Source: Escherichia phage slur16. From it: 64,000 bases of DNA. Shown here in pieces: positions 2,005-63,876 of this stretch (position 1 is the first letter of the stretch; every line of letters starts with the position of its first letter). The DNA lies in sequence record NC_028248.1. One strand, written 5' to 3'. The position numbers and the translations under genes were made by a program. Under the pieces are notes generated by a model. It made no database searches. It was not told the origin of the DNA and saw nothing but the letters and a program-made list of their open reading frames with translations.

Positions 2005-3987
2005 TTATTTGGTGTTATTCTTTGTATCAATCAGCTCACGGTATTCAATCATAGCAGGGGTGTCCCAATATTTCAAGCCTACATGCTTCAAAAGTGGATA
2101 TTTCTTTTCCAATCTTGCAATATAGGCCTTCCCGCATTTGACTCGGTTGGCGATTAAGATTTTGGCACGATGATTTAGCTCACTATGCTTCCACGCGGTG
2201 TTACCTTCCCACTTGTGGAAATGTGGCCGATAATTTCCAAAATCTTGCATGGGGATAATTTTCCCCAATTGTCTATACAGGCTGTCATATGAAGTTTCAT
2301 TTGCTGCGCGAGTCAGTAAGAATTTCCAAGCATCCTCTTTCAACAAATGTTCCACACTCTTCTCTGTAACATACTGGCAATCAGGATCAGTCCAAAGCAG
2401 ACGAGATTCTGATACCAGGTACAGATCTTCCCCTTCAGGAATCTGAAGTGCCGCACGCACACGGTCATAATTTTGCTGGTAGATGTTACTCAGCTGTCCC
2501 AGCCAACAACTTCCACGTTGGATATCACCCTCATAAGGGATGCAGTGTTTAATCTTCCGGAACTCTGCCTTAGTAATACGCTCACGGCGAAAGTAACCAT
2601 CCTTCTCAAGTTTTTTAACCCAATAACCTGGCTCATAACGAGTTTTTGTTTCACCTTTCTTGACAGGTCGGCGAGGGAGCTCTGATAACAATTTGACCGT
2701 ATCTGCAAAGAACGGGTGGTGTGCCGCTTCTTTAAACTCTTCCACCAGATCCGTGTTACGGCAATAGAAAACGTTGCGTCCGGTGATCTCGCTTAAGTAG
2801 TTACACTTATTTCGGTTATATTTGCCGTCTCCGTCGTTAAATACTAAATAGACTCCCCGCAAAAACTCTGACTTTCCATAACGAGCATAGCCTATGCGGC
2901 CTTTATTTAAGCCGCCAGCGAAAATTTCACAATCGCCTAAGTCTCCAAGTCCTGTTTCTTCCCAACGGTTCCACATAAAGTTTTTGCCGAAGATGTGTCC
3001 GAACACCCCACTATTCTTCATCATTTCACGTGCTTCTGCGGAGGTTTTTGCCGTCTCCAGTTCTGCAACAACTTCTGCCCCGCGAAGACGTATACCTTCT
3101 TTGACAAAGGCCTCCAGGCGATCCTGGAATCCACCGTCGTCATGGCCCTCTATGGTCCATTCACGCCCAGGGTTAATATTGCAATCCCCAATAGGAATTT
3201 CCACGCAGATTGCAGGGTAATCGGTCAATGTCTCCAGGAACTTAGAGCGGTAAGGTTGGTGACCCATCACAACACGGCTCTCATCAGAGCTGGTATAACC
3301 TTTCAGGATAGTCATTTTCCAACCATCTTTCTCGTAGCGATACTGCGCCTCAACCTTGTCACCTTCCAGCATCTTACTGGTCATAGGGTCGGTAACGGTA
3401 AACGGAAACTTTGCATAGCGTAGGCATGACGCAATAGCAGTGCGATATTTCAGAACATGCTCTTTCTTAACATGGAACTGAACTTTTACCCCGTTGTGCT
3501 CTTCAGTCTTCCGCTCGCGGATCTTGGTAACGTTTGGGATACCCTGATCCAAGAACAATAGATATGTGCTTTCAACACCGTTGTGCACACTGATCACATC
3601 GAAAGTGTCCACCATGCTGAACGGGGCCTTTGAACCTACACCTTTATTACCTACCAGAGCGTTGCTGTTGCGCTTGGTTGACTCCCCGAGGTTCATGAAA
3701 GTGTTGCGGACCATCTCTTCTGACATACCCAATCCAACGTCCTGCACAAAGAAGTATGGTTCAAGGTCTGTAGGGGAGTGAATGATGATCGGTACATCAC
3801 CCCGTCCAGACTCAACATGGGAGTCCACAGCATTGAAGATTGGTTCACGGCAGCTTGCCAGCACCTTATCTTCGTAAATCCCTTTAATGATTAGCCCAAA
3901 AGTCTCTTTGTTCAGAGAAATTGAGCCCCTGGTGACCTCCATATTTCCGGTTAGTACTGCTTTAGTTTCATTACTGTTTACAATCAT
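2005..3987 (-). CDS. GHKL (Bergerat-fold) ATPase-domain protein with large uncharacterised C-terminal region
   Basis: N-terminal motifs EPIFNAVDS (N box), DVGLGMS (G1, Hsp90/MutL-like DxGxG) and GNKGVGSKA (G2). No Toprim EGDSA motif, so not a GyrB-type topoisomerase subunit. C-terminal ~450 aa unassigned. Confidence 0.6.
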   Translation of the reverse strand: MIVNSNETKAVLTGNMEVTRGSISLNKETFGLIIKGIYEDKVLASCREPIFNAVDSHVESGRGDVPIIIHSPTDLEPYFFVQDVGLGMSEEMVRNTFMNLGESTKRNSNALVGNKGVGSKAPFSMVDTFDVISVHNGVESTYLLFLDQGIPNVTKIRERKTEEHNGVKVQFHVKKEHVLKYRTAIASCLRYAKFPFTVTDPMTSKMLEGDKVEAQYRYEKDGWKMTILKGYTSSDESRVVMGHQPYRSKFLETLTDYPAICVEIPIGDCNINPGREWTIEGHDDGGFQDRLEAFVKEGIRLRGAEVVAELETAKTSAEAREMMKNSGVFGHIFGKNFMWNRWEETGLGDLGDCEIFAGGLNKGRIGYARYGKSEFLRGVYLVFNDGDGKYNRNKCNYLSEITGRNVFYCRNTDLVEEFKEAAHHPFFADTVKLLSELPRRPVKKGETKTRYEPGYWVKKLEKDGYFRRERITKAEFRKIKHCIPYEGDIQRGSCWLGQLSNIYQQNYDRVRAALQIPEGEDLYLVSESRLLWTDPDCQYVTEKSVEHLLKEDAWKFLLTRAANETSYDSLYRQLGKIIPMQDFGNYRPHFHKWEGNTAWKHSELNHRAKILIANRVKCGKAYIARLEKKYPLLKHVGLKYWDTPAMIEYRELIDTKNNTK

Positions 3988-4484
3988 TTATTGCGCTCCT
4001 TGTAGTAGATATGACTCCCGAATTGAGCTGTCCTCTGCATCTTTTTTGCCCATTTCGGTCGTACTTTGGTTGTATGGTAGTGTGTTGCTCCACCTGTTAT
4101 GTCCATAGCCATGTATGCAACATGGTTGTTATTATAGACCTTTAGAAGCATCTTTGCAAGACTTTTAGCGTGATCCCATGAATCTTTTTCTGTCACCTTA
4201 AAAGTTTTGCCGTGGTTTGTCCACGAAAACTGGTTAGGTTGGTAGACAATCTTTCTTATAGTGTCTGGGTATTTGGGGTGAGATTTCCTGTTTAGTGTGG
4301 CAAATCCTGATGCCAGCATACCCATCGTGCCATCCCCTCTAGCCTCCCTGTAGATATTGCATGCCAGAATGTTTTCCTTAGTATCTGAGGGCTTGCAAGT
4401 ATGATATACTTTTTGTTTTGGTGCTGCAACAACAGGCAGCGATAAAAATGCGCTCAAAATAATAGCAAAGATCTTAATTTTCAC
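3984..4484 (-). CDS. secreted cell-wall hydrolase, SleB/CwlJ-like (Hydrolase_2 family)
   Basis: N-terminal signal peptide MKIKIFAIILSAFLSLPVVAAP followed by YREARGDG...LNR...YQPNQFSW, matching the EARGE / NR / QFS hallmarks of SleB-type hydrolases. Confidence 0.55.
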   Translation of the reverse strand: MKIKIFAIILSAFLSLPVVAAPKQKVYHTCKPSDTKENILACNIYREARGDGTMGMLASGFATLNRKSHPKYPDTIRKIVYQPNQFSWTNHGKTFKVTEKDSWDHAKSLAKMLLKVYNNNHVAYMAMDITGGATHYHTTKVRPKWAKKMQRTAQFGSHIYYKERNK

Positions 4485-4491
4485 AATAACT

Positions 4492-4520
4492 CCAAATAGA
4501 AAATCCCCGCCGAAGCGGGG
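4492..4520 (-). terminator. rho-independent terminator candidate
   Basis: Plus-strand CCCCGC-cgaa-GCGGGG hairpin (4505-4520); on the minus-strand transcript it is followed by a U-rich run (revcomp of 4492-4504). Lies between gene ends 4534 and 4484. Confidence 0.5.
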
Positions 4521-4533
4521 GAGGTCTTAGAAA

Positions 4534-4914
4534 TCAATCGTAGTGTGCCAAAATCTCTCCATCGTTGCAAGTTCCCTCTACAAAGTTATGAAGATTCATG
4601 CACTCATCTTGATAGAAGAATTTACCGCTTTTCAGCCGTAAGCCAAACAACTCCGCATCTCCACGATGGCAAGCCTCTACAAGTTCATAGATTTCATACG
4701 GCAACTCTCCGTCGTCATGGAAGAACCCAGCCTTATCGTTGACATAGATGAAGAAATAATCACTGCTATCGCAAGCGTCCAATATTTCAAACCAGATTTC
4801 ATCTACATCTTTTTCTCGGATATCGATCACGCAAGTGGAGCTGCATTCGTACTCCTTCTCCGGCTCTTCGGTCAATACTACCAGGTAGTTTCCCCGCTTA
4901 CCTACTTTAGCCAT
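4534..4914 (-). CDS. hypothetical acidic protein
   Basis: 126-aa ORF, compact spacing with neighbours, no motif recognised. Confidence 0.45.
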   Translation of the reverse strand: MAKVGKRGNYLVVLTEEPEKEYECSSTCVIDIREKDVDEIWFEILDACDSSDYFFIYVNDKAGFFHDDGELPYEIYELVEACHRGDAELFGLRLKSGKFFYQDECMNLHNFVEGTCNDGEILAHYD

Positions 4915-4923
4915 ACAACCTCC

Positions 4924-6108
4924 TCAAGCTTTAGCCAAAATGGCGCTAAACTCTTCACCAAACTCTTTTACAATCTTCATCAGGTTTGGGTATGCTTTAA
5001 TCAGCTGAGCAACAATCTTGTCACGCCCTTTACCGATAAGCAAGGCATTTCCTAAGGCATTAGGTTTCATCATCGCCATAAAGACTGAGAATACAAAATC
5101 TCGGTTCTCGTCCTTGAAATTTTCCCAAAGGAAATCGAGGAAGTTTGCCACACAGCTAACAAGATCTTCGTCGGAGATACTTGCATTTTCCATCATATTA
5201 CGAATAGCGATACAACCTTCAGACCCAAGAATCCACAAGATGTCTGGCTGTTTAGGACCTATGTATTCTTTGCAACCCCCTGCCATAATCCGACCGATTT
5301 CCGGTAAGTTGCGTTTCTTGGTGTGGTAGGTCCAGATCTCTACCGCTGCAGTGTGACCAATAGCACCTTGCAGAAGAACACGGGCCATAGCGTCAGAAAT
5401 AATACCGCTGTCAAAATCGTGCAAGATGTCAGATGCAGCAACCCAAGATCGCGGTGTGGCAAAAGATGGACAATTAATCTCAGCCATAGCCTCATAATTA
5501 TCGATAGCTGATGGAACTCTTTTCAGATACCCAATTACAGAGGAGTGCACCCCATTGAGGAATGCGTAGTCCTCAATAAACACCTCTGCATTGCTTGTAA
5601 CCTCTACAATGATAAAGCGGTTAGCCAGAGGAGCTTCGAGCGCCGAAAGAACAGCACCATCTGTAGAACGGTTACCCGCAGCCACAAAAACAGAGCCTTT
5701 AGGGAATGCATAGGTGCCGCACTTGTGGTCGAGCATAATCTGCATTGCAACCTTTTGCAGATAGTTATCTGCATGAGTAAGCTCATCCAGAAAGATAATT
5801 CCACCCCAGTTCGGATCTGCAGGCCAAAATTCTGGAATTGCAAACACTGTACGTGTAGTTCCATCAGCTTCTACAGGGATAGGTAGCCCAGATAAGTCGG
5901 CAGGATCTTTATCTGACAGCCGCACGTCAACCAGGTTGTCATCTCGCTCACCGAACATATTATCGGCGATCTGCTTCATCACCTGGCTCTTTCCCACGCC
6001 CATTGGTCCTAAAATCAGGACAGATCGGTTATGACGCTGGGCAAACTGAATGATAGCTGGCAACTCACGGACAGTGATTTGACCACTTTCAAATACGTTT
6101 CTTGACAT
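4924..6108 (-). CDS. AAA+ ATPase, MoxR/CobS-like
   Basis: Walker A LILGPMGVGKSQ, Walker B IIFLDELTHA, downstream sensor region VFVAAGNRS; size (~394 aa) typical of MoxR/CobS (AAA_5) proteins. Confidence 0.7.
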   Translation of the reverse strand: MSRNVFESGQITVRELPAIIQFAQRHNRSVLILGPMGVGKSQVMKQIADNMFGERDDNLVDVRLSDKDPADLSGLPIPVEADGTTRTVFAIPEFWPADPNWGGIIFLDELTHADNYLQKVAMQIMLDHKCGTYAFPKGSVFVAAGNRSTDGAVLSALEAPLANRFIIVEVTSNAEVFIEDYAFLNGVHSSVIGYLKRVPSAIDNYEAMAEINCPSFATPRSWVAASDILHDFDSGIISDAMARVLLQGAIGHTAAVEIWTYHTKKRNLPEIGRIMAGGCKEYIGPKQPDILWILGSEGCIAIRNMMENASISDEDLVSCVANFLDFLWENFKDENRDFVFSVFMAMMKPNALGNALLIGKGRDKIVAQLIKAYPNLMKIVKEFGEEFSAILAKA

Positions 6109-6416
6109 TAGTAAAAGTCCTCTACTTGTGTGTAAGTGTTTTCAAAGTTTTCCAAAACAGATGCCACATCGGATCTGTCAATATCGTACACAACTTCCCA
6201 GTTGTATGCAACCCTTTCTGCTGTTGCTTCTTCAGGACTTAGCCGTCTACTGGGGTGAAAGAATGTTGGGGTACACCTTCTTAGTTGTCTTCCGGTTTTC
6301 CCATAACAATATCTGTGGATAACTTTGTCAAAATTTAACTCTTTTTCTGCACAAAGTTCGTGTTTCTGGTATAACATGTTTATTACTCTTCTAAGCGGCA
6401 TCCCTGCCACCACCAC
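6108..6416 (-). CDS. hypothetical protein
   Basis: 102-aa ORF, start/stop abutting neighbours in an operon-like array. Confidence 0.4.
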   Translation of the reverse strand: MVVAGMPLRRVINMLYQKHELCAEKELNFDKVIHRYCYGKTGRQLRRCTPTFFHPSRRLSPEEATAERVAYNWEVVYDIDRSDVASVLENFENTYTQVEDFY

Positions 6417-6419
6417 CTG

Positions 6420-6800
6420 CTAGAATGCAGTTCGAATCCAGACAAGGTTCTTATCTGCCCAATCATAGAGGCAAGTCATTGCGCTATTGAATTGCTCACA
6501 CGGAGGATAATCTTCTTCCATCTGGCGCATAGCAGAGCCTTGTGGGTAAAGCTCCCGTGCTGCAAGCCACGCATCGTAGTCATCCACGGTATCGAAGTAG
6601 TATACAACATCCTCCAACTCAGGATCGAACTTTGAATTATCAGGATCCAGTTGTTCAGGGAACTTGGAGCGTAACTTGCCAGCCACAATGCTTGCCAACT
6701 CGCTAACATGCTTATTGTCCCACTCTACTAGTTTCCCGTCTTCAGCGATGCGTCCTAACCACTGATCATGAAGGTCAACTGTTGTCTTCCACCGGGCCAT
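6420..6800 (-). CDS. hypothetical protein
   Basis: 126-aa ORF in a co-directional tightly packed array. Confidence 0.45.
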   Translation of the reverse strand: MARWKTTVDLHDQWLGRIAEDGKLVEWDNKHVSELASIVAGKLRSKFPEQLDPDNSKFDPELEDVVYYFDTVDDYDAWLAARELYPQGSAMRQMEEDYPPCEQFNSAMTCLYDWADKNLVWIRTAF

Positions 6801-6802
6801 TA

Positions 6803-7060
6803 TCAGTCCACCTCTTCTTCTCGTTGCAGTTCAAGATACCCGTAGGTCTGGATATCTTCAAGGGTGTGGAAATCCCCATCTGCCGCTAAGGCACGAACAA
6901 CTTGGCACAAAACTTTATGAGGAACTTCATCCAGACCCAGATTCAGTGCAGGGAACACCTTATCTAAGTCAACAAAATAAACGAACTGTAGCTCACCAGC
7001 TTCAAAAGGTGTATCTTCAATAAACATCTTCTCGGCATTAGTCAAGATCTGCACTTTCAT
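6803..7060 (-). CDS. hypothetical protein
   Basis: 85-aa ORF, abuts neighbours. Confidence 0.4.
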   Translation of the reverse strand: MKVQILTNAEKMFIEDTPFEAGELQFVYFVDLDKVFPALNLGLDEVPHKVLCQVVRALAADGDFHTLEDIQTYGYLELQREEEVD

Positions 7061-7437
7061 TATTCTGCCTCCTCTTCTTTTTCTTCGGCGTTAGTTTCAG
7101 TGCTACCCCACTCTGGAGTTTCCACCTCGATAGTAAACTCACGCACTACACGGTAATTGCCCATGAAGCGCTCCACCTCGTCAAGGCTTATGGCGAGGCC
7201 ATTGGAAACCAGGTCTGCAGCACCCTCTTCTACCAGATAGTCCAGATTGGCTTCCAAAGCTTCAGGCTCGAACCCTGTCAATGCAATCAGATAACCTTTC
7301 CCTTCATCAGGTAGGACAATACAGCCCAACTGATTTTCTTTAAAAAGGCAGTGACCATCATTATTGATGGGGTGTTCATTGCAGTAAATAGCTGCACGAT
7401 AAGTAGCTTTAGACATCGGTAAGGCCTCCTTAGGCAA
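7060..7437 (-). CDS. hypothetical protein with acidic C-terminus
   Basis: 125-aa ORF ending in EEKEEEAE; overlaps neighbours by 1-8 nt. Confidence 0.4.
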   Translation of the reverse strand: MPKEALPMSKATYRAAIYCNEHPINNDGHCLFKENQLGCIVLPDEGKGYLIALTGFEPEALEANLDYLVEEGAADLVSNGLAISLDEVERFMGNYRVVREFTIEVETPEWGSTETNAEEKEEEAE

Positions 7438-7708
7438 TTGTCATTTTACATTCTTGAAATTTTAACACAAGACGGTGATTGTGTCTAGTGTCTAAAAAGA
7501 TTTTTTCAACCATCAGGCACACGGTATAACCGTCCATCTTGTTAACAACAAAATCTCCAGGGTGAGGGAGGATGTCCCCTGGATTGGGGAAACATAACCC
7601 GCTCAAGAAGGCATCATCGGTGGTGGACTTAATGGATTTCCACACATTGTCTGCCTGAACATTTTCACCCACATAGTATACACTACCACATGCCTTCATC
7701 ATAGTCAA
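7430..7708 (-). CDS. hypothetical protein
   Basis: 92-aa ORF, overlapping start/stop with neighbours. Confidence 0.4.
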   Translation of the reverse strand: MTMMKACGSVYYVGENVQADNVWKSIKSTTDDAFLSGLCFPNPGDILPHPGDFVVNKMDGYTVCLMVEKIFLDTRHNHRLVLKFQECKMTIA

Positions 7709-8604
7709 ATCTCCGCGTAAATTAAACTGGAATCAGTATACTTCTTTAACGGGTAAATATCCTGTCCATAGATGCCGTCATTAAACACCTCATCTACCCA
7801 AAGGCTACACTTATATCCCATCATTTCTAAAACGCCCATCTCTTCTTCGGTGAACTTATCACCGCTCTTGCAAGATGTCAATACCTCATTCTGTACTCTT
7901 GCTACCTCGAAGCGGTTATTGGCAATATCACTATTGGCAATCAAATACTCACCTAAAGGGTGTGCAGCATTAAAGATGCACAGTGGACGGTTGACGTAAT
8001 AGTCTCCCGGTGTATAAAAATTGTTGAGATCCTTCACCAGAACATTCTTATCAGTCACTTCATTTATAACATCATGCATATCACACATCTTTATATGTTT
8101 GAGGATTCCATCCCCCATCACAAAATAAAAACTTGCTGAGACACTCTCGGCATAGATCTTACTAGATCCGTTGTAGTTGTATTTTACGCGAATGCTTACA
8201 GGGGTTTTGCCTGTCGCGTTAGCCATCATCCAAAGGAACGGAAGTTCAAACCTCTCCTCTGAGGAAACAAAAGGTGAAGTTGCCAGAGATCGGAAACCTC
8301 CAGAAAAGTTGAAAGTTACAGAGCCGCTCCGGCGGTATGATACCGCGTATTCTACTTTTATATCGACGTACCCATTGGAATAGGTGTGTCCTTCATTATC
8401 TAAATATGTCCACTTATCAGACCCAGATACCAATCTACGCTCAATAACCTTCATCACTACAGGAATTAGTGGGTTGGTACAAACCGCTTTTGAAGTAGCT
8501 TTATCATCTAAAGCCTCGTAAATTGCAGAAAGGATGTCCCCAGCTGAAAGATTGGTTGTTATGTCCTGTTTCCACCGCGTACTAAAACTGTTAAGATTTG
8601 CCAT
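7705..8604 (-). CDS. hypothetical protein, first gene of the leftward block
   Basis: 299-aa ORF; AGGAG RBS upstream of ATG at 8604; promoter candidate immediately upstream. Confidence 0.5.
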   Translation of the reverse strand: MANLNSFSTRWKQDITTNLSAGDILSAIYEALDDKATSKAVCTNPLIPVVMKVIERRLVSGSDKWTYLDNEGHTYSNGYVDIKVEYAVSYRRSGSVTFNFSGGFRSLATSPFVSSEERFELPFLWMMANATGKTPVSIRVKYNYNGSSKIYAESVSASFYFVMGDGILKHIKMCDMHDVINEVTDKNVLVKDLNNFYTPGDYYVNRPLCIFNAAHPLGEYLIANSDIANNRFEVARVQNEVLTSCKSGDKFTEEEMGVLEMMGYKCSLWVDEVFNDGIYGQDIYPLKKYTDSSLIYAEI

Positions 8605-8644
8605 AAGTAAGTGCTCCTATGTTAGTTTTCTTTCGAATGGGTGC

Positions 8645-8673
8645 ACTATATTGTGGAGTTAGAGTAAAGTCAA
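8645..8673 (-). promoter_or_regulatory. sigma70-like promoter for the leftward block
   Basis: On the minus strand: -35 TTGACT (8673..8668), 17-nt spacer, -10 TATAGT (8650..8645); ~40 nt upstream of the ATG at 8604. Confidence 0.5.
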
Positions 8674-8683
8674 CACGTTTTTG

Positions 8684-9724
8684 ATGTTGACATCTGTTGA
8701 GACAATTGATACGATTTCTTCACTTACAGAGCACGAGAGACGACTCATGAATCTTGAAAAATATTATACACCAGAAGAGTTAGAGCGCTTGCTCAAAAAA
8801 TATAGACGCAAACAGAATAACGCACGGAAACGAGATATAGAGTTCGACCTGTCATGGGAAGAATACCTCCTATTTGGTAAAAAACTTTTAGGGGAGGGGG
8901 TATGCGACTACACCCTTATACCTTTCGACATGCACACAGATGAAAACGGACTGGGAAATCCTTTCTACCCATCTCTGGAGCGGATAGATGATGAAGGTCC
9001 TTACGCAATTGATAATTGTTGTGTGGTAGGGTTGAGGTGCAATGCTCTGAAAGACTGTCTGGTAGATAAAAAGACTGCAATCCTGATTAAAGACAAAACT
9101 GATCGAAAAATTGTCCAGCAGATGATGCTCCACCTGAGCGAAGAGCGTATGGAGAAATTGAAAGGTGATTATACTTTTGAAGATTTCATCTTGCAATACG
9201 GGACAGAAGAAGATAAACTAGCACTATTTGACGAAGAGGAGGAAGATATGTCACCAATGCAGGACTTTAAAAATTTCATGGCTGATCGTGCAGCCAACAA
9301 ACACATTTCAGACATCGTAAACGAGACTGTGGCAGAAGAAATTGAAGAACAGAACTCTGAAGAGGAAAAAGATCCTCAGGAGGTCGAAGAGGAGATTGCA
9401 GAAGAAGTTCCTGCACTGCCTGATGATGTTGAGATTGCTAAGGCTTACACTTTCTATTGTCAAACGTTCTACGATGCAGGTATGAAAGTTGATCTGTCGT
9501 TCAGCCAATTTAAGAGTTCGTATATTCGCAAATGCTGTGCTTTAACTGGTGAACGTCTCGGAGCTGGACTTAAACCACTGTTGGTGACCGACTGGAATAA
9601 AGGTTTCACTAAAGGAAACTTTATGGTAGTATCTCCAATTATGGAGAAAGCTATGACAGATCTTATGAAGACCACCCGCATGACAATGACCGAGTTGGCA
9701 GGTATTTTCAAACACGTTAAATAA
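8684..9724 (+). CDS. hypothetical protein with acidic region
   Basis: ORF 8681..9724 (track start is TTG; first ATG at 8684; alternative start at 8747 downstream of the candidate promoter). Contains a Glu-rich stretch. Confidence 0.5.
   Translation: MLTSVETIDTISSLTEHERRLMNLEKYYTPEELERLLKKYRRKQNNARKRDIEFDLSWEEYLLFGKKLLGEGVCDYTLIPFDMHTDENGLGNPFYPSLERIDDEGPYAIDNCCVVGLRCNALKDCLVDKKTAILIKDKTDRKIVQQMMLHLSEERMEKLKGDYTFEDFILQYGTEEDKLALFDEEEEDMSPMQDFKNFMADRAANKHISDIVNETVAEEIEEQNSEEEKDPQEVEEEIAEEVPALPDDVEIAKAYTFYCQTFYDAGMKVDLSFSQFKSSYIRKCCALTGERLGAGLKPLLVTDWNKGFTKGNFMVVSPIMEKAMTDLMKTTRMTMTELAGIFKHVK
8687..8715 (+). promoter_or_regulatory. sigma70-like promoter candidate for the rightward block
   Basis: -35 TTGACA (8687-8692), 17-nt spacer, -10 TACGAT (8710-8715). 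It lies inside the called N-terminus of the next ORF, so the true start may be the ATG at 8747. Confidence 0.35.
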
Positions 9725-9736
9725 TGACAGGGGCCA

Positions 9737-11218
9737 ATGGCCCCTTCTGGAGTTTTAATGGATAGCAGAAGTTCAGAAATCATTGCCTCACAGAAAGATG
9801 ATGCCCTGAGAATGTTGCAGGCTGCACGTATGTATCTCCTTGAAAAGCTGCCGTTTTATGGCACACTGCTGTCAGGGTTGCAGTTCGTAGAAAACCACAC
9901 ATGGTGCTCCACCATGGCAACCGACCATAAACGCATTTATTACAGCCCTGAGTTCATTATGGGATTGGCTGATGAACGCAAGGCTATTCTTAAGGCTTCT
10001 CTAACTGACGAGCAGTTTGAGATGGCTGAAGTTTTCTATTCCCCAAAATCTGTGAAAGAGGTGGCCTTCCTTCTGTCACATGAGGTGGGGCATATTATCT
10101 GTGATCACCTGGTCCGTGGTAAAAGCTTTGAGCCGGAACTGTTCAATATTGCTTGTGATCACGTTATCAACACAGGTCTTGTGGTTGACTTTAGCAAGCC
10201 TCCTTGTGTTTTCTTCCCGAAGGGGAAAAGCACTACGTTCGTGAAAGGCAAGCCTTTTGGCTTCTTAGCTAACTGCTACTGCGACATGAAGTTTCATGGA
10301 TGGATTGCTGAGAACGTCTATGCAGTTCTTGATAAGCAAAGAGATCAGAATAACGGTAAAAGTAAGAGCGGTAAAGGTGAGAACTCTCAAGGAGATAAGC
10401 GACAAACCGATGATCACATGAGTGGGAACGGTGGCACCAGTGATGATCTTGGAAAGGCTATGGGGTATGATCAGCCACAACCTGTAATCAGCCAATCTGA
10501 TAAAGATCAGGCCATGCAGGACTCTGGCGATATGCTGGAGGCAGCAATGCAAGCGTCCGGAGGTCGTTGCCCTGAGGCGGTTCGTGAGTTTGTCAAGAAT
10601 AGAGGTAAGCCTGTAATCAATTATATAGACATCATCAAGCAGCGTATGTTGTCTAAAAGAAAGGCCGAACTGACCTACAGAAAACCTGGTCGCCGATCTG
10701 GGTCTTTGACCAGCACAATGCGAAAAGTCGGAGCTATAAACAAGAACCAGCACGTTATTGTTCCTGGTCGTAATCCGGAAAACACTATAGATATTGTGGT
10801 GGCTTTAGACGTTTCTGGCTCGATCTCTCAAAGAACTTTAAAGAAAATGTTCAATGAAATCACCGGATTGTGCAATCTGTATAAAGAATTTAAGGTTACA
10901 ATGTTCTGTTGGTCAACTGAGGTTGGAGAGGTTAAAGTATACACTCGCGGCAACATAGACGAAATGATCAACTATGAGGTCCACTCAACATGGGGAACAA
11001 CAGCTGCTTGCGTGTTCGAGTATCTGGATGCCAACATACCAAATGCAAAAGATGTCATCGTCCTGACCGACCTATACTTTGAGCATAACTTTGAACAAAA
11101 GGCTGTTGACAACAAGTGGAAAAAGTACGATACTTTATGGGTTCTAACCGAAGGGTATAATAAAAATTATATCCCTAGCTTTGGTAAAACTGTGGAATTA
11201 ATCGAGTACGCTAAGTAA
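9737..11218 (+). CDS. VWA-domain protein with N-terminal HExxH metallopeptidase-like motif
   Basis: HEVGHIICDH (HExxH) in the N-terminal half; VALDVSGS (DxSGS MIDAS motif) in the C-terminal half. Alternative in-frame start at 9758 with GGAG RBS. Confidence 0.65.
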   Translation: MAPSGVLMDSRSSEIIASQKDDALRMLQAARMYLLEKLPFYGTLLSGLQFVENHTWCSTMATDHKRIYYSPEFIMGLADERKAILKASLTDEQFEMAEVFYSPKSVKEVAFLLSHEVGHIICDHLVRGKSFEPELFNIACDHVINTGLVVDFSKPPCVFFPKGKSTTFVKGKPFGFLANCYCDMKFHGWIAENVYAVLDKQRDQNNGKSKSGKGENSQGDKRQTDDHMSGNGGTSDDLGKAMGYDQPQPVISQSDKDQAMQDSGDMLEAAMQASGGRCPEAVREFVKNRGKPVINYIDIIKQRMLSKRKAELTYRKPGRRSGSLTSTMRKVGAINKNQHVIVPGRNPENTIDIVVALDVSGSISQRTLKKMFNEITGLCNLYKEFKVTMFCWSTEVGEVKVYTRGNIDEMINYEVHSTWGTTAACVFEYLDANIPNAKDVIVLTDLYFEHNFEQKAVDNKWKKYDTLWVLTEGYNKNYIPSFGKTVELIEYAK

Positions 11219-11224
11219 GAGAGG

Positions 11225-11491
11225 ATGTTATTTATGGCAACAGAGGTAGTAATTAAAGCTGAACGCCCAGTTAAAAAAGCTATCAACACGTTCCCTGTGG
11301 GAACCATTGTGAGCATGATCACAGAGTCAGGTCGTGTATCTACGCTGCTGATTGTGAAATCTGCATGTTCTTCTTGTGTGTGGGCTTACGATCTGGACGA
11401 GAAAGAACTAAAAGATTTTGTTGGGGAGCTGAAAGCAACCGAGCTCGATGCTCGTATCGAAGTATTTGGTGAAACTATGGAGGAAGAGTAA
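11225..11491 (+). CDS. small hypothetical protein, paralog 1 of a tandem trio
   Basis: 88 aa; shares an F-x-x-G-x-[IV]-V ... C pattern with the next two ORFs. Confidence 0.45.
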   Translation: MLFMATEVVIKAERPVKKAINTFPVGTIVSMITESGRVSTLLIVKSACSSCVWAYDLDEKELKDFVGELKATELDARIEVFGETMEEE

Positions 11492-11754
11492 TGACCACGA
11501 AAATCACTATTGCAGAACCGAAAGCTAACACTCAACCCATCGAAAAGTTTAAATGCGGTGAGGTGGTAACATTTACGCCAGATAATGAAGATGCTAAGAT
11601 TTTCGCCATGGTCACAGCTGAGTGGATGTGTGACAACACCACACAGGTTCTGCGTTTTGACACCTACCTTACAGATGAAATCAGGAACGATAAGATCGTG
11701 ACTGGTGTAGATACTGAAATTATTTTCTACAAGAGCTTTTTAGAGGGTTTCTAA
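11491..11754 (+). CDS. small hypothetical protein, paralog 2
   Basis: 87 aa; ATGA overlap with the upstream gene; KFKCGEVVTF motif. Confidence 0.45.
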   Translation: MTTKITIAEPKANTQPIEKFKCGEVVTFTPDNEDAKIFAMVTAEWMCDNTTQVLRFDTYLTDEIRNDKIVTGVDTEIIFYKSFLEGF

Positions 11755-63062: not shown

Positions 63063-63139
63063 TGGTCTCCACGGAGTGATTCGAACACTCGACCTCCTGA
63101 TCCCAAATCAGGCGCTCTACCAAGCTGAGCTACGCGGAG
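63063..63139 (-). tRNA. tRNA-Pro (anticodon UGG)
   Basis: Hand-folded cloverleaf: acceptor CTCCGCG/CGTGGAG, anticodon loop TTTGGGA, T-loop TTCGAAT, encoded CCA. Confidence 0.8.
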
Positions 63140-63150
63140 TATTTATTATT

Positions 63151-63225
63151 TGGTGGCCCTGGGTGGAATTGAACCACCGTCTGGCGATTATGAGTCGCTT
63201 GCTTGAACCTTCCAGCTACAGGGCC
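63151..63225 (-). tRNA. tRNA-Met (anticodon CAU; elongator or Ile2-type not distinguished)
   Basis: Acceptor GGCCCTG/CAGGGCC, anticodon loop CTCATAA, T-arm GGTGG-TTCAATT-CCACC, encoded CCA. Confidence 0.75.
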
Positions 63226-63226
63226 A

Positions 63227-63302
63227 TGGTGCTGATGGCAGGACTTGAACCTGCAACCTATTGATTACAAATCAATTGCACTACCAATTGTGCTACATCA
63301 GC
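63227..63302 (-). tRNA. tRNA-Thr (anticodon UGU)
   Basis: Acceptor GCTGATG/CATCAGC, D-stem GCAC/GTGC, anticodon arm ATTGA-TTTGTAA-TCAAT, T-arm GCAGG-TTCAAGT-CCTGC, encoded CCA. Confidence 0.8.
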
Positions 63303-63308
63303 AAAAAA

Positions 63309-63407
63309 GGTGCTAGGTGATGGAATCGAACCACCTATGTATTCAACGACTACCTCGTCTATTTTCAGGATTAAAAATCCTCGCCCTTGCCAAAGGGCTT
63401 ACCTAGC
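63309..63407 (-). tRNA. atypical 99-nt tRNA-like gene (anticodon candidate UUU, oversized ~30-nt variable region)
   Basis: Perfect 7-bp acceptor GCTAGGT/ACCTAGC, D-arm GCCC-TTTGGCAA-GGGC, T-arm GGTGG-TTCGATT-CCATC; anticodon arm only 4 bp (AGGA/TCCT) around loop TTTTTAA; 30 nt between anticodon and T arms; 3' end ACC-U, so CCA not fully encoded. Confidence 0.45.
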
Positions 63408-63505
63408 TCAGTATGTTGACCATGTTGCTAGTCGGCGATGACGACTGTAACATTTGATAATCCGGTTCTGCTTCCGGCTTTCGCTTAATTACAAGGTCAA
63501 CAATA

Positions 63506-63596
63506 TGGCTGAGGGTAATGGAATCGAACCATCATCGAGTCATCCTCAACGGGACGGTTTTCAAGACCGCTTGAGCACCATTGCTCCCTACCCTCA
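63506..63596 (-). tRNA. tRNA-Ser (anticodon UGA), type II
   Basis: Acceptor TGAGGGT/ACCCTCA, anticodon arm GCGGT-CTTGAAA-ACCGT, ~19-nt variable arm, T-arm GATGG-TTCGATT-CCATT, encoded CCA; 91 nt. Confidence 0.75.
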
Positions 63597-63710
63597 TTTA
63601 TAAACAATACTGATAATGACACTGATTTTCGAGCAGTTAGTGACTAGTATAAACGACGATAAATATCAATGCCATTATCTGTATGATTTATGCATTTAAA
63701 ACTATAAATT

Positions 63711-63797
63711 TGGTGGGGAGTGGTGGAGTCGAACCACCCGAGTCGTAATGACAATAGATTTACAGTCTACACCGCTACCTCTACGGGATAACTCCCC
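63711..63797 (-). tRNA. tRNA-Tyr (anticodon GUA), type II
   Basis: Acceptor GGGGAGT/ACTCCCC, anticodon arm GTAGA-CTGTAAA-TCTAT, long variable arm, T-arm GGTGG-TTCGACT-CCACC, encoded CCA; 87 nt. Confidence 0.75.
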
Positions 63798-63801
63798 AAT
63801 T

Positions 63802-63876
63802 TGGCACCCCGTACTGGACTCGAACCAGTGTCAACGGCTTAGAAGGCCGCTGCTTTATCCACTAAGCTAACAGGGC
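63802..63876 (-). tRNA. tRNA-Arg (anticodon UCU)
   Basis: Acceptor GCCCTGT/ACGGGGT with two G-U pairs, anticodon arm GCGGC-CTTCTAA-GCCGT, T-arm ACTGG-TTCGAGT-CCAGT, encoded CCA. Confidence 0.7.

Follow-up and report, generated by a model that had tools for sequence, protein, structure and literature searches.

A MoxR-clade ATPase and a VWA-zincin protein encoded in divergent blocks of an rV5-like phage: a probable cognate pair of the N4 gp24/gp25 type

The 64,000-nucleotide stretch of Escherichia phage slur16 (NC_028248.1) analysed here, which we will refer to as the window, encodes on opposite strands an AAA+ ATPase that we accept, on transitive homology and a predicted fold, as a member of the MoxR clade, and a protein in which a putative zincin metallopeptidase domain is followed by a VWA domain. 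Our results suggest that the two probably form a cognate pair, orthologous to gp24 and gp25 of phage N4, that was split by an inversion and acts in trans, with the metal ion-dependent adhesion site (MIDAS) of the VWA domain capturing a target and the zincin domain cleaving or processing it. Close relatives are already annotated with the names 'MoxR ATPase' and 'metallopeptidase'. What is new here, judging from sequence comparison, is that the rV5-type genes appear to be the N4 gp24/gp25 pair, inversion-split in three genera of the Vequintavirinae, and that a related uncultivated lineage seems to tolerate complete unlinking of the pair. We do not see a new system in the window pair, which is a known pair whose gene order is derived.

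Results

The ATPase open reading frame (ORF) proposed in the original prediction was confirmed by the match of its product to PHROG 1297 ('ATPase', E 3.5e-111) and by its AAA+ motifs (Table 1), whose key residues are invariant in an alignment of 43 sequences whose identity to the window ATPase goes down to 31%. The protein had been labelled MoxR/CobS-like, and of this label we would keep the first half, to which the Pfam labels of the homologues and the fold both point, and drop the second, as neither a CobS-specific profile nor such a context was found: no CobS- or CobT-specific family appeared in the Pfam or NCBIfam output, and there were no chelatase genes among the examined neighbouring genes of the window. 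AAA_3/AAA_5 is carried by 19 of the 43 aligned sequences (best E 2.4e-9), bpMoxR is matched by seven, and environmental homologues of 360 amino acids (aa), 31-36% identical to the window ATPase over ~85% of its length, have both AAA_3 and AAA_5. The AlphaFold2 model (predicted local distance difference test, pLDDT, 86; predicted template modelling score, pTM, 0.77) places a beta-hairpin after helix 2 and a short hairpin before sensor 1, as in the MoxR/dynein/midasin/chelatase clade; midasin tops the profile search of PDB sequences with this ATPase (E 2.3e-10), and the solved structures nearest to its fold are CbbQ and NorQ.

The ribosome-binding site of the ATPase gene is GAGGA. The stop codon of the small ORF at 6108-6416 overlaps the start of this gene, and translation of the two may be coupled. 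This ORF is kept solely among Vequintavirus-level relatives. It belongs to PHROG 13164, which is named 'ATPase', and in phage nom it is annotated 'MoxR ATPase'; we considered it as an ATPase and rejected it, having found no P-loop, no NCBIfam match and no ATPase-family support, and the name is probably a spill-over of the label.

As to the second protein, both the ORF and the VWA and HExxH domains that had been assigned to it stood, on the Pfam matches and the homologues, while its start codon probably did not. A profile search that included the N-terminal part gave support to the HExxH and MIDAS motifs, with DUF2201_N (PF13203, putative metallopeptidase) matched at E 3.4e-28 (99.5 bits against a cut-off of 23.2) and DUF2201 (PF09967, VWA-like) at E 3.6e-11 (43.7 bits against 26.4); both are above the gathering cut-offs, and DUF2201_N followed by DUF2201 is a standing Pfam architecture. 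The protein also matches PHROG 1314 (E 4e-123). Residues H108, E109, H112, H117 and D134 are invariant in seven diverse phage lineages as far as N4, as are D351, S353, S355, T414 and D438 of the MIDAS, and among 29 database homologues the conservation of the HExxH, H117, D134 and the MIDAS residues is complete or reaches at least 90%. Because of the DUF2201_N match and this conservation, the HExxH reads as a profile-supported active-site motif, not as a chance match, and H117 and D134 are candidate third zinc ligands. The glutamate of HExxH is the general base of zincin peptidases. In the AlphaFold2 model (pLDDT 80.5) the VWA fold is confirmed by structure search, with the VWA domain of NorD among the matches, while a loop of variable length in the peptidase domain (aa 200-229) has a pLDDT below 50 and corresponds to a gapped block of the alignment.

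We consider ATG 9758 more likely than 9737 to be the start of this gene, because GGAG lies 6-9 nucleotides (nt) upstream of the former, the latter lies inside a GC-rich hairpin, and other annotators chose the equivalent start. A 61-nt fold over this hairpin has an energy of -19.5 kcal/mol (z -2.5). The VWA-zincin family comprises 27,313 cluster representatives at E<=1e-3, and still 7,284 at E<=1e-30, which makes it very large. NCBIfam and PADLOC returned no meaningful match for either the ATPase or the VWA protein, so the pair fits no named equivalog and no known defence system. With regard to names, PHROG 1314 (VWA plus zincin) and PHROG 3118 (Srd-like) both bear the name 'HNH endonuclease', which has spread into RefSeq (GAP31_033, GAP31_031 and PA5oct gp144) and also concerns L010:11986-13422 and L014:4965-6149; despite that name, no HNH domain was found in the Pfam/PHROG analysis of the VWA or the Srd-like product, and the propagated misannotation is flagged here.

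Homologues of the two proteins were sought by tblastn in 50,697 phage records, and hidden Markov models (HMMs) made from the ATPase and VWA alignments were run over annotated loci, IMG/VR loci and metagenome contigs. Of the phage records, 724 had a match to the VWA protein and 825 one to the ATPase, with counts by genus (VWA/ATPase) of 213/214 for Escherichia, 26/26 for Pectobacterium, 17/17 for Cronobacter and 17/17 for Achromobacter. The VWA gene was within 10 kb in 31 of 35 ATPase-anchored IMG/VR loci, and the remaining four contigs stop 0.04-2.2 kb past the ATPase; no sampled contig with enough sequence carried one gene of the pair without the other. At locus L009, where the VWA gene has no ATPase nearby, an upstream 413-aa ORF was considered as a divergent ATPase and rejected, as it gave no HMM match even unfiltered, and the ATPase was later located on the same contig by protein search. 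The window holds one homologue of each protein (E<=1), and the earlier statement that it encodes a single VWA protein holds within the reach of these family HMMs.

When the arrangement of the homologues in other phages was surveyed, three layouts emerged, of which the adjacent one is the most widespread. That MoxR-VWA pairs normally lie next to each other, as had been stated for the window, was in fact what we saw in N4, jumbo phages, Certrevirus, phage W70 and two cellular or metagenomic contigs. In this first layout the genes are co-oriented with the ATPase upstream: gp24 and gp25 of N4 are ~170 nt apart, and the same order is found in an N4-like contig (L074), Alcyoneusvirus phiKp_21, a 578-kb jumbo contig, Certrevirus PBES02 (gap of 67 nt) with four IMG/VR relatives (L031-L034), W70, an NCBI assembly contig and a Paracoccaceae metagenome-assembled genome (MAG), whose ATPase reaches Pfam AAA_3/AAA_5. 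The adjacency of cellular pairs comes from these two examples and general knowledge, a further scan of genome contigs having recovered the same MAG. Some lineages are co-oriented with 0.4-2.9 kb of inserted genes between the two, and one locus (L042) has the reversed order, VWA before ATPase. In PA5oct (L014:963-6149) four genes, one of them a putative homing endonuclease, separate the co-oriented ATPase and VWA genes, an independent break-up of the pair by insertion, not inversion.

The second layout is divergent, with the genes 3.4-5.1 kb apart, and was seen among the surveyed loci only in Vequintavirus (the window, L001-L008 and L016-L021), Seunavirus (GAP31 and L022-L025) and Mydovirus (KB57, L026-L030 and L035). 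The ORF coordinates in the window agree with the original prediction of two oppositely oriented blocks some 3.6 kb apart, the start-to-start distance being 3,649 nt (3,628 nt with the start at 9737). The third layout was found in the contig IMGVR_UViG_3300045988_163358 (136,426 bp), where the genes are on the same strand but far apart, with the motifs of both intact: the VWA gene (46% identical) lies at ~103.4-104.9 kb with an Srd-like gene before it, and the ATPase gene (59% identical) at ~4.2-5.4 kb with tail genes before and rIIA-rIIB after. The separation comes to 98 kb when the contig is taken as linear, and to 35.7 kb if it represents a circularly permuted genome.

As a side observation on this pig-gut lineage (the contig above and Logan SRR16894747_3803; loci L009, L082:1-9942 and L083), the whole Srd/VWA early block is absent from the place between the tail genes and the ATPase that it occupies in rV5, and is found on the same strand at a distance of 36 kb or more. 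It thus behaves as a relocatable module.

In all three layouts every catalytic and MIDAS residue is kept. Compared with a sister group of the window phage (L005, ~60-70% identity), the ATPase (72.5%) and the VWA protein (61.5%) are among the best-conserved genes of the region, against 27-65% for their neighbours. Over nine lineages, the identities of the two proteins to those of the window are correlated (Spearman 0.93), much of which shared phylogeny alone would also yield; such correlated divergence fits a co-inheritance of the two genes. On the comparative data, namely co-occurrence, retention through three gene orders, correlated divergence, and the back-to-back promoters described below, we favour the one of the two originally proposed alternatives by which the proteins work together despite the separation of their genes. 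The other is that each has a different partner; in the form considered here, the partnership was lost after the split, and each protein acts alone or with a host partner, for example the ATPase with ViaA or YehP, or the VWA-peptidase with RavA. E. coli does have MoxR/VWA pairs of its own, the two genes are unlinked and on opposite strands in the window, and one lineage has them 36 kb or more apart. A loss of partnership appears most improbable to us, however, with the catalytic and MIDAS residues intact in every arrangement, co-occurrence nearly perfect at the genus level, divergence correlated, and no sufficiently long sampled contig with one gene alone.

With regard to how the divergent layout arose, PBES02 and W70 have a plus-strand block that runs from an HD phosphohydrolase to the ATPase and the VWA gene, whereas in GAP31 and KB57 the ATPase and HD genes are on the minus strand and the Srd-like and VWA genes on the plus strand, ATPase and HD on one side of the junction and Srd and VWA on the other; the HD proteins of the two layouts are 45-57% identical. 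One inversion of the segment from the HD phosphohydrolase to the ATPase, with a breakpoint between the ATPase and VWA genes, would explain this difference. Such an inversion would have occurred in the ancestor of Vequintavirus, Seunavirus and Mydovirus and moved the ATPase to the other strand, behind a newly formed divergent junction, where the Srd-like and other genes would have been added later. We infer that the adjacent ATPase-VWA order is ancestral and the divergent one derived, because all outgroups, cellular ones included, have the former. In Vequintavirus the HD gene appears to have since been lost from the ATPase block, and the ORF homologous to GAP31_026 is still upstream of the ATPase, with just the small ORF at 6108-6416 between them. 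The split of the two genes has no evident functional meaning.

The 76-nt junction of the divergent blocks holds back-to-back promoters of the sigma70 type (Table 1), which, as predicted at 8645-8715, agree with the published rV5 promoter map (PMC3606486), where bidirectional promoters that lie between gene 10 and gene 11, as well as divergent transcription units, were described in 2013. A palindrome at 8669-8691 contains the two -35 boxes as the arms of an inverted repeat of 8 bp (GTCAACAC-N7-GTGTTGAC), which could be a shared regulator site or the mere effect of placing two consensus -35 boxes back to back. In the sister genera, too, the Srd/VWA block is preceded by a near-consensus promoter, TTGACA-17-GATAAT (or TAATGT), and the plus-strand promoter is conserved in L005, L010 and L011. 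Through such predicted bidirectional promoters, expression of the ATPase and VWA blocks can stay coordinated.

Slur16 is of a non-jumbo myovirus type (137 kb). Over positions 4500-11500, the identity is 100% to Escherichia phage slur12 (LN881735.1) and 96-97% to ~100 rV5-like members of the genus Vequintavirus. The minus strand carries, besides rIIB, rIIA, the SleB-type hydrolase gene and a small ORF (Table 1), the ATPase gene and six further ORFs reaching 8604, and in the plus block the VWA gene is followed by about a dozen small plus-strand ORFs to ~15.6 kb. The Srd-like gene, whose true start is probably ATG 8747 rather than 8681, matches PHROG 3118, 4592 and 1400, and its rV5 counterpart gp11 has been named an Srd homologue (PMC3606486).

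Table 1. Genes, protein motifs and expression signals at and around the ATPase and VWA genes (window positions; residues of the VWA protein are counted from the M at 9758)
Feature	Position	Strand	Remarks
rIIB	789-2030	minus	
rIIA	2005-3987	minus	
SleB-type wall hydrolase	3984-4484	minus	
One small ORF		minus	between SleB-type hydrolase and ATPase genes
MoxR-clade AAA+ ATPase gene, 394 aa	4924-6108	minus	rV5 gene 4 equivalent; homologue of N4 gp24
Sensor-2 ATPR, aa 217-220	5449-5460	minus	R220 invariant in 43 sequences
Sensor-1 AAGN (aa 143-146) to arginine finger PLANRF (aa 160-165)	5614-5682	minus	N146 and R164 invariant in 43 sequences
Walker B IIFLDE, aa 104-109	5782-5799	minus	D108, E109 invariant in 43 sequences
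Walker A GPMGVGKS, aa 34-41	5986-6009	minus	G37, G39, K40, S41 invariant in 43 sequences
Small ORF, 102 aa	6108-6416	minus	stop codon overlaps ATPase start (TAATG)
ORF homologous to GAP31_026	6420-6800	minus	
299-aa ORF	7705-8604	minus	first gene of minus block behind bidirectional promoter
Predicted promoter TTGACT-17-TATAGT	8673 to 8645	minus	sigma70 consensus
Srd-like (anti-sigma decoy) gene	8681-9724	plus	first in plus block, directly upstream of VWA gene
Predicted promoter TTGACA-17-TACGAT	8687-8715	plus	sigma70 consensus
GC-rich hairpin GGGGCC-AAT-GGCCCC	9729-9745	plus	between Srd-like stop and VWA ribosome-binding site
Zincin-VWA protein gene, 486 aa from 9758	9737/9758-11218	plus	homologue of N4 gp25
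HEVGH, aa 108-112	10079-10093	plus	predicted zinc-binding/catalytic motif
Gly/Ser/Asp/Lys-rich loop, aa 200-229	10355-10444	plus	variable length, in peptidase domain
MIDAS site	10808-11071	plus	DVSGS aa 351-355 (10808-10822), T414 (10997-10999), D438 (11069-11071)

Additional observations concern the surroundings of the pair. Sixteen GenBank records labelled as Campylobacter phages (host C. jejuni), among them MG065646, MG065647, MG065658, MG065659, MG065661 and MG065682, are 96-97% identical over the 7 kb, which suggests that they are mislabelled or contaminating coliphages in that data set. The ORF at 7705-8604 is called 'putative alpha 1-3 fucosyltransferase' in relatives and belongs to PHROG 12338 (unknown function), and no Pfam or NCBIfam match was found behind that name. 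At 63063-63876, on the minus strand, lies a cluster of seven tRNAs (Pro, Met, Thr, Ser, Tyr, Arg and one other), the seventh being an odd call of 99 nt at 63309-63407 with a 4-nt anticodon ('atcc'), which may be an intron-containing or degenerate tRNA.

Discussion

A cognate pair acting in trans is the reading that we prefer, and it is grounded in homology and intact motifs, in the fold of the ATPase and that of the VWA domain, and in gene orders and co-retention. Several of our own results and one published proposal nonetheless weigh against it. The window ATPase itself is under the Pfam gathering threshold (17.8 bits against 22 for AAA_5, with AAA_3 unlisted), and for this reason its membership of the MoxR clade was drawn from transitive homology and fold. 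In two fold searches with the full-length model of the VWA protein, all the listed matches fell on the VWA domain, and no solved zincin structure was among them. The polarity of the inversion comes from outgroup parsimony alone, and the lineage with the genes at least 36 kb apart tells us that linkage is dispensable, as independent functions would also predict. In PBES02 there is a hairpin (L012:11915-11975), similar to that of the window, upstream of the VWA gene, with a sigma70-like promoter before it and a T-run after it, so that even in the adjacent layout the VWA gene may have transcription signals of its own, and the PBES02 pair is perhaps not co-transcribed. Lastly, a role in virion assembly and processing, not an early one, was proposed by Iyer et al. 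(2021) for the jumbo-phage pair (PMC7824862).

If the two proteins do act together, the ATPase would presumably form a hexamer of the MoxR type, on which one VWA protein would dock; the MIDAS ion would bind an acidic residue of the client, ATP hydrolysis would remodel it, and the fused zincin domain, with its conserved catalytic glutamate, would cleave or process it. Both proteins would be made together from host-type promoters in the early region and would then assemble in trans. This mechanism is drawn by analogy with CbbQ-CbbO, NorQ-NorD, RavA-ViaA and midasin, and cleavage of the client is suggested because the VWA adaptor carries a zincin site in which the catalytic glutamate is kept. The parts of it that we infer are that a complex forms, that it has proteolytic activity, that its timing is early, and which protein is the target.

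Regarding the target, a non-structural host or phage protein of early or middle infection is weakly favoured over a virion protein, because of the host-type promoters, the rIIA/rIIB and Srd-like neighbours, and the middle-class transcripts of the core genes gp24 and gp25 in N4 (PMC4193335). In N4-likes the pair is next to RNA polymerase, nucleotide-metabolism and replication genes. A more specific version, in which an early or middle ATP-driven, MIDAS-targeted protease remodels and cleaves a host defence, transcription or envelope factor, strikes us as rather improbable. If true, it would make the pair a widespread host-takeover or counter-defence machine, core in N4-likes and carried by over 700 phages with sequenced genomes, rV5-like and jumbo ones among them, and one that works in trans so robustly that breaks of the operon (0, ~4 or at least 36 kb) cost nothing.

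A different possibility, unlikely but to be taken seriously, is that the cognate pair acts late, as a virion-assembly chaperone and maturation peptidase for structural proteins. Besides the assembly role published for jumbo phages (PMC7824862), a MoxR-VWA pair of Acidianus two-tailed virus (ATV), p618/p892, is implicated in the development of the tail of this archaeal virus; in a sister lineage (L082/L083) the ATPase gene is directly downstream of tail and baseplate genes, and in N4-like roseophages a 'second structural module' is located close to the gp24/gp25 homologues (PMC4193335). In the window, however, sigma70-consensus promoters stand at the head of the blocks that hold the two genes, and rIIA/rIIB and the Srd-like gene are found there too; in N4 they are middle genes between RNAPII and genes for nucleotide metabolism and replication, and in the N4-like contig L074 the pair lies between an RNA polymerase and helicase/DNA polymerase genes. 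Neither product is among the rV5 virion proteins identified by mass spectrometry, although an assembly chaperone need not be packaged.

We regard as very unlikely a third role, in which the cognate pair would insert a cofactor or activate an enzyme in the manner of NorQ-NorD, CbbQ-CbbO or CobS-CobT, the HExxH binding metal and the client being a phage or host metalloenzyme such as ribonucleotide reductase. CbbQ and NorQ as the nearest structures to the ATPase, the VWA domain of NorD as a fold match, and the nucleotide-metabolism genes that adjoin the N4-like pair would all be in keeping with it. On the other hand, no CobS_N, CobT or chelatase profile was matched, the invariant glutamate of the HExxH points to hydrolysis, and there was no conserved metalloenzyme neighbour across the examined lineages.

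Read as a cognate pair, the separated rV5-like genes lose their apparent oddity, since they would be an ordinary pair of the N4 gp24/gp25 type after an inversion, and their annotation can be tidied. A naturally split operon is available in the Vequintaviruses, phages of the BASEL collection among them, whose E. coli host is tractable, and there each gene can be deleted or tagged without a polar effect on the other.

The pair can be compared with several known systems. CobS shares the broad AAA+ clade of the window ATPase and likewise acts with a VWA protein, but neither a profile specific to CobS or CobT (as in the cyanophage 'cobS') nor the corresponding context was found at the window pair. 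CbbQ-CbbO and NorQ-NorD are MoxR-VWA activases of the CGN subfamily. E. coli RavA-ViaA and p618/p892 of ATV, the latter a viral example, share the general logic of a MoxR ATPase with a VWA cofactor; they are without a peptidase domain, RavA has a LARA domain, and no close sequence relationship of the window pair to either was detected in this analysis. The vWA-MoxR ternary conflict systems (Kaur et al. 2020) have a third, VMAP-type component and effector domains, whereas no conserved third gene stands beside our pair across the examined phage lineages. A closer likeness is that of the cellular DUF2201_N/DUF2201 proteins, known here from the Paracoccaceae MAG, which have the same two-domain architecture and a MoxR gene immediately upstream, although the cellular ATPases pass the Pfam AAA_3/AAA_5 thresholds and that of Vequintavirus does not.

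Among phages, a pair made of a MoxR AAA+ protein and a vWA protein with an N-terminal metallopeptidase was described in group 2.2 jumbo phages (Iyer et al. 2021, PMC7824862), and it is of the same family, as the matches in PA5oct, K64-1, PBECO4-like phages and Alcyoneusvirus (tblastn, 24-30% identity) indicate. It differs from that of the window in that slur16 is not a jumbo phage, its pair is split, and the region is of an early type; the omics paper on PA5oct, which uses another gene numbering, does not mention the pair. The closest parallel remains N4, whose gp24 and gp25 belong to the set of 14 genes that make up the core of the N4-like phages (Schitoviridae; PMC4193335). They are homologous to the window pair (tblastn E 5.8e-25 and 4.4e-18, 26% and 22% identity) and score 422 and 407 bits with the family HMMs. 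The Vequintavirus proteins are longer than those of N4, with inserts in the peptidase domain, and the genes that are adjacent and co-oriented in N4-likes are on opposite strands and 3.6 kb apart in the window. The N4 pair is not transcribed with the late structural genes, and it has the same domain architectures and the same invariant motifs as the pair of slur16.

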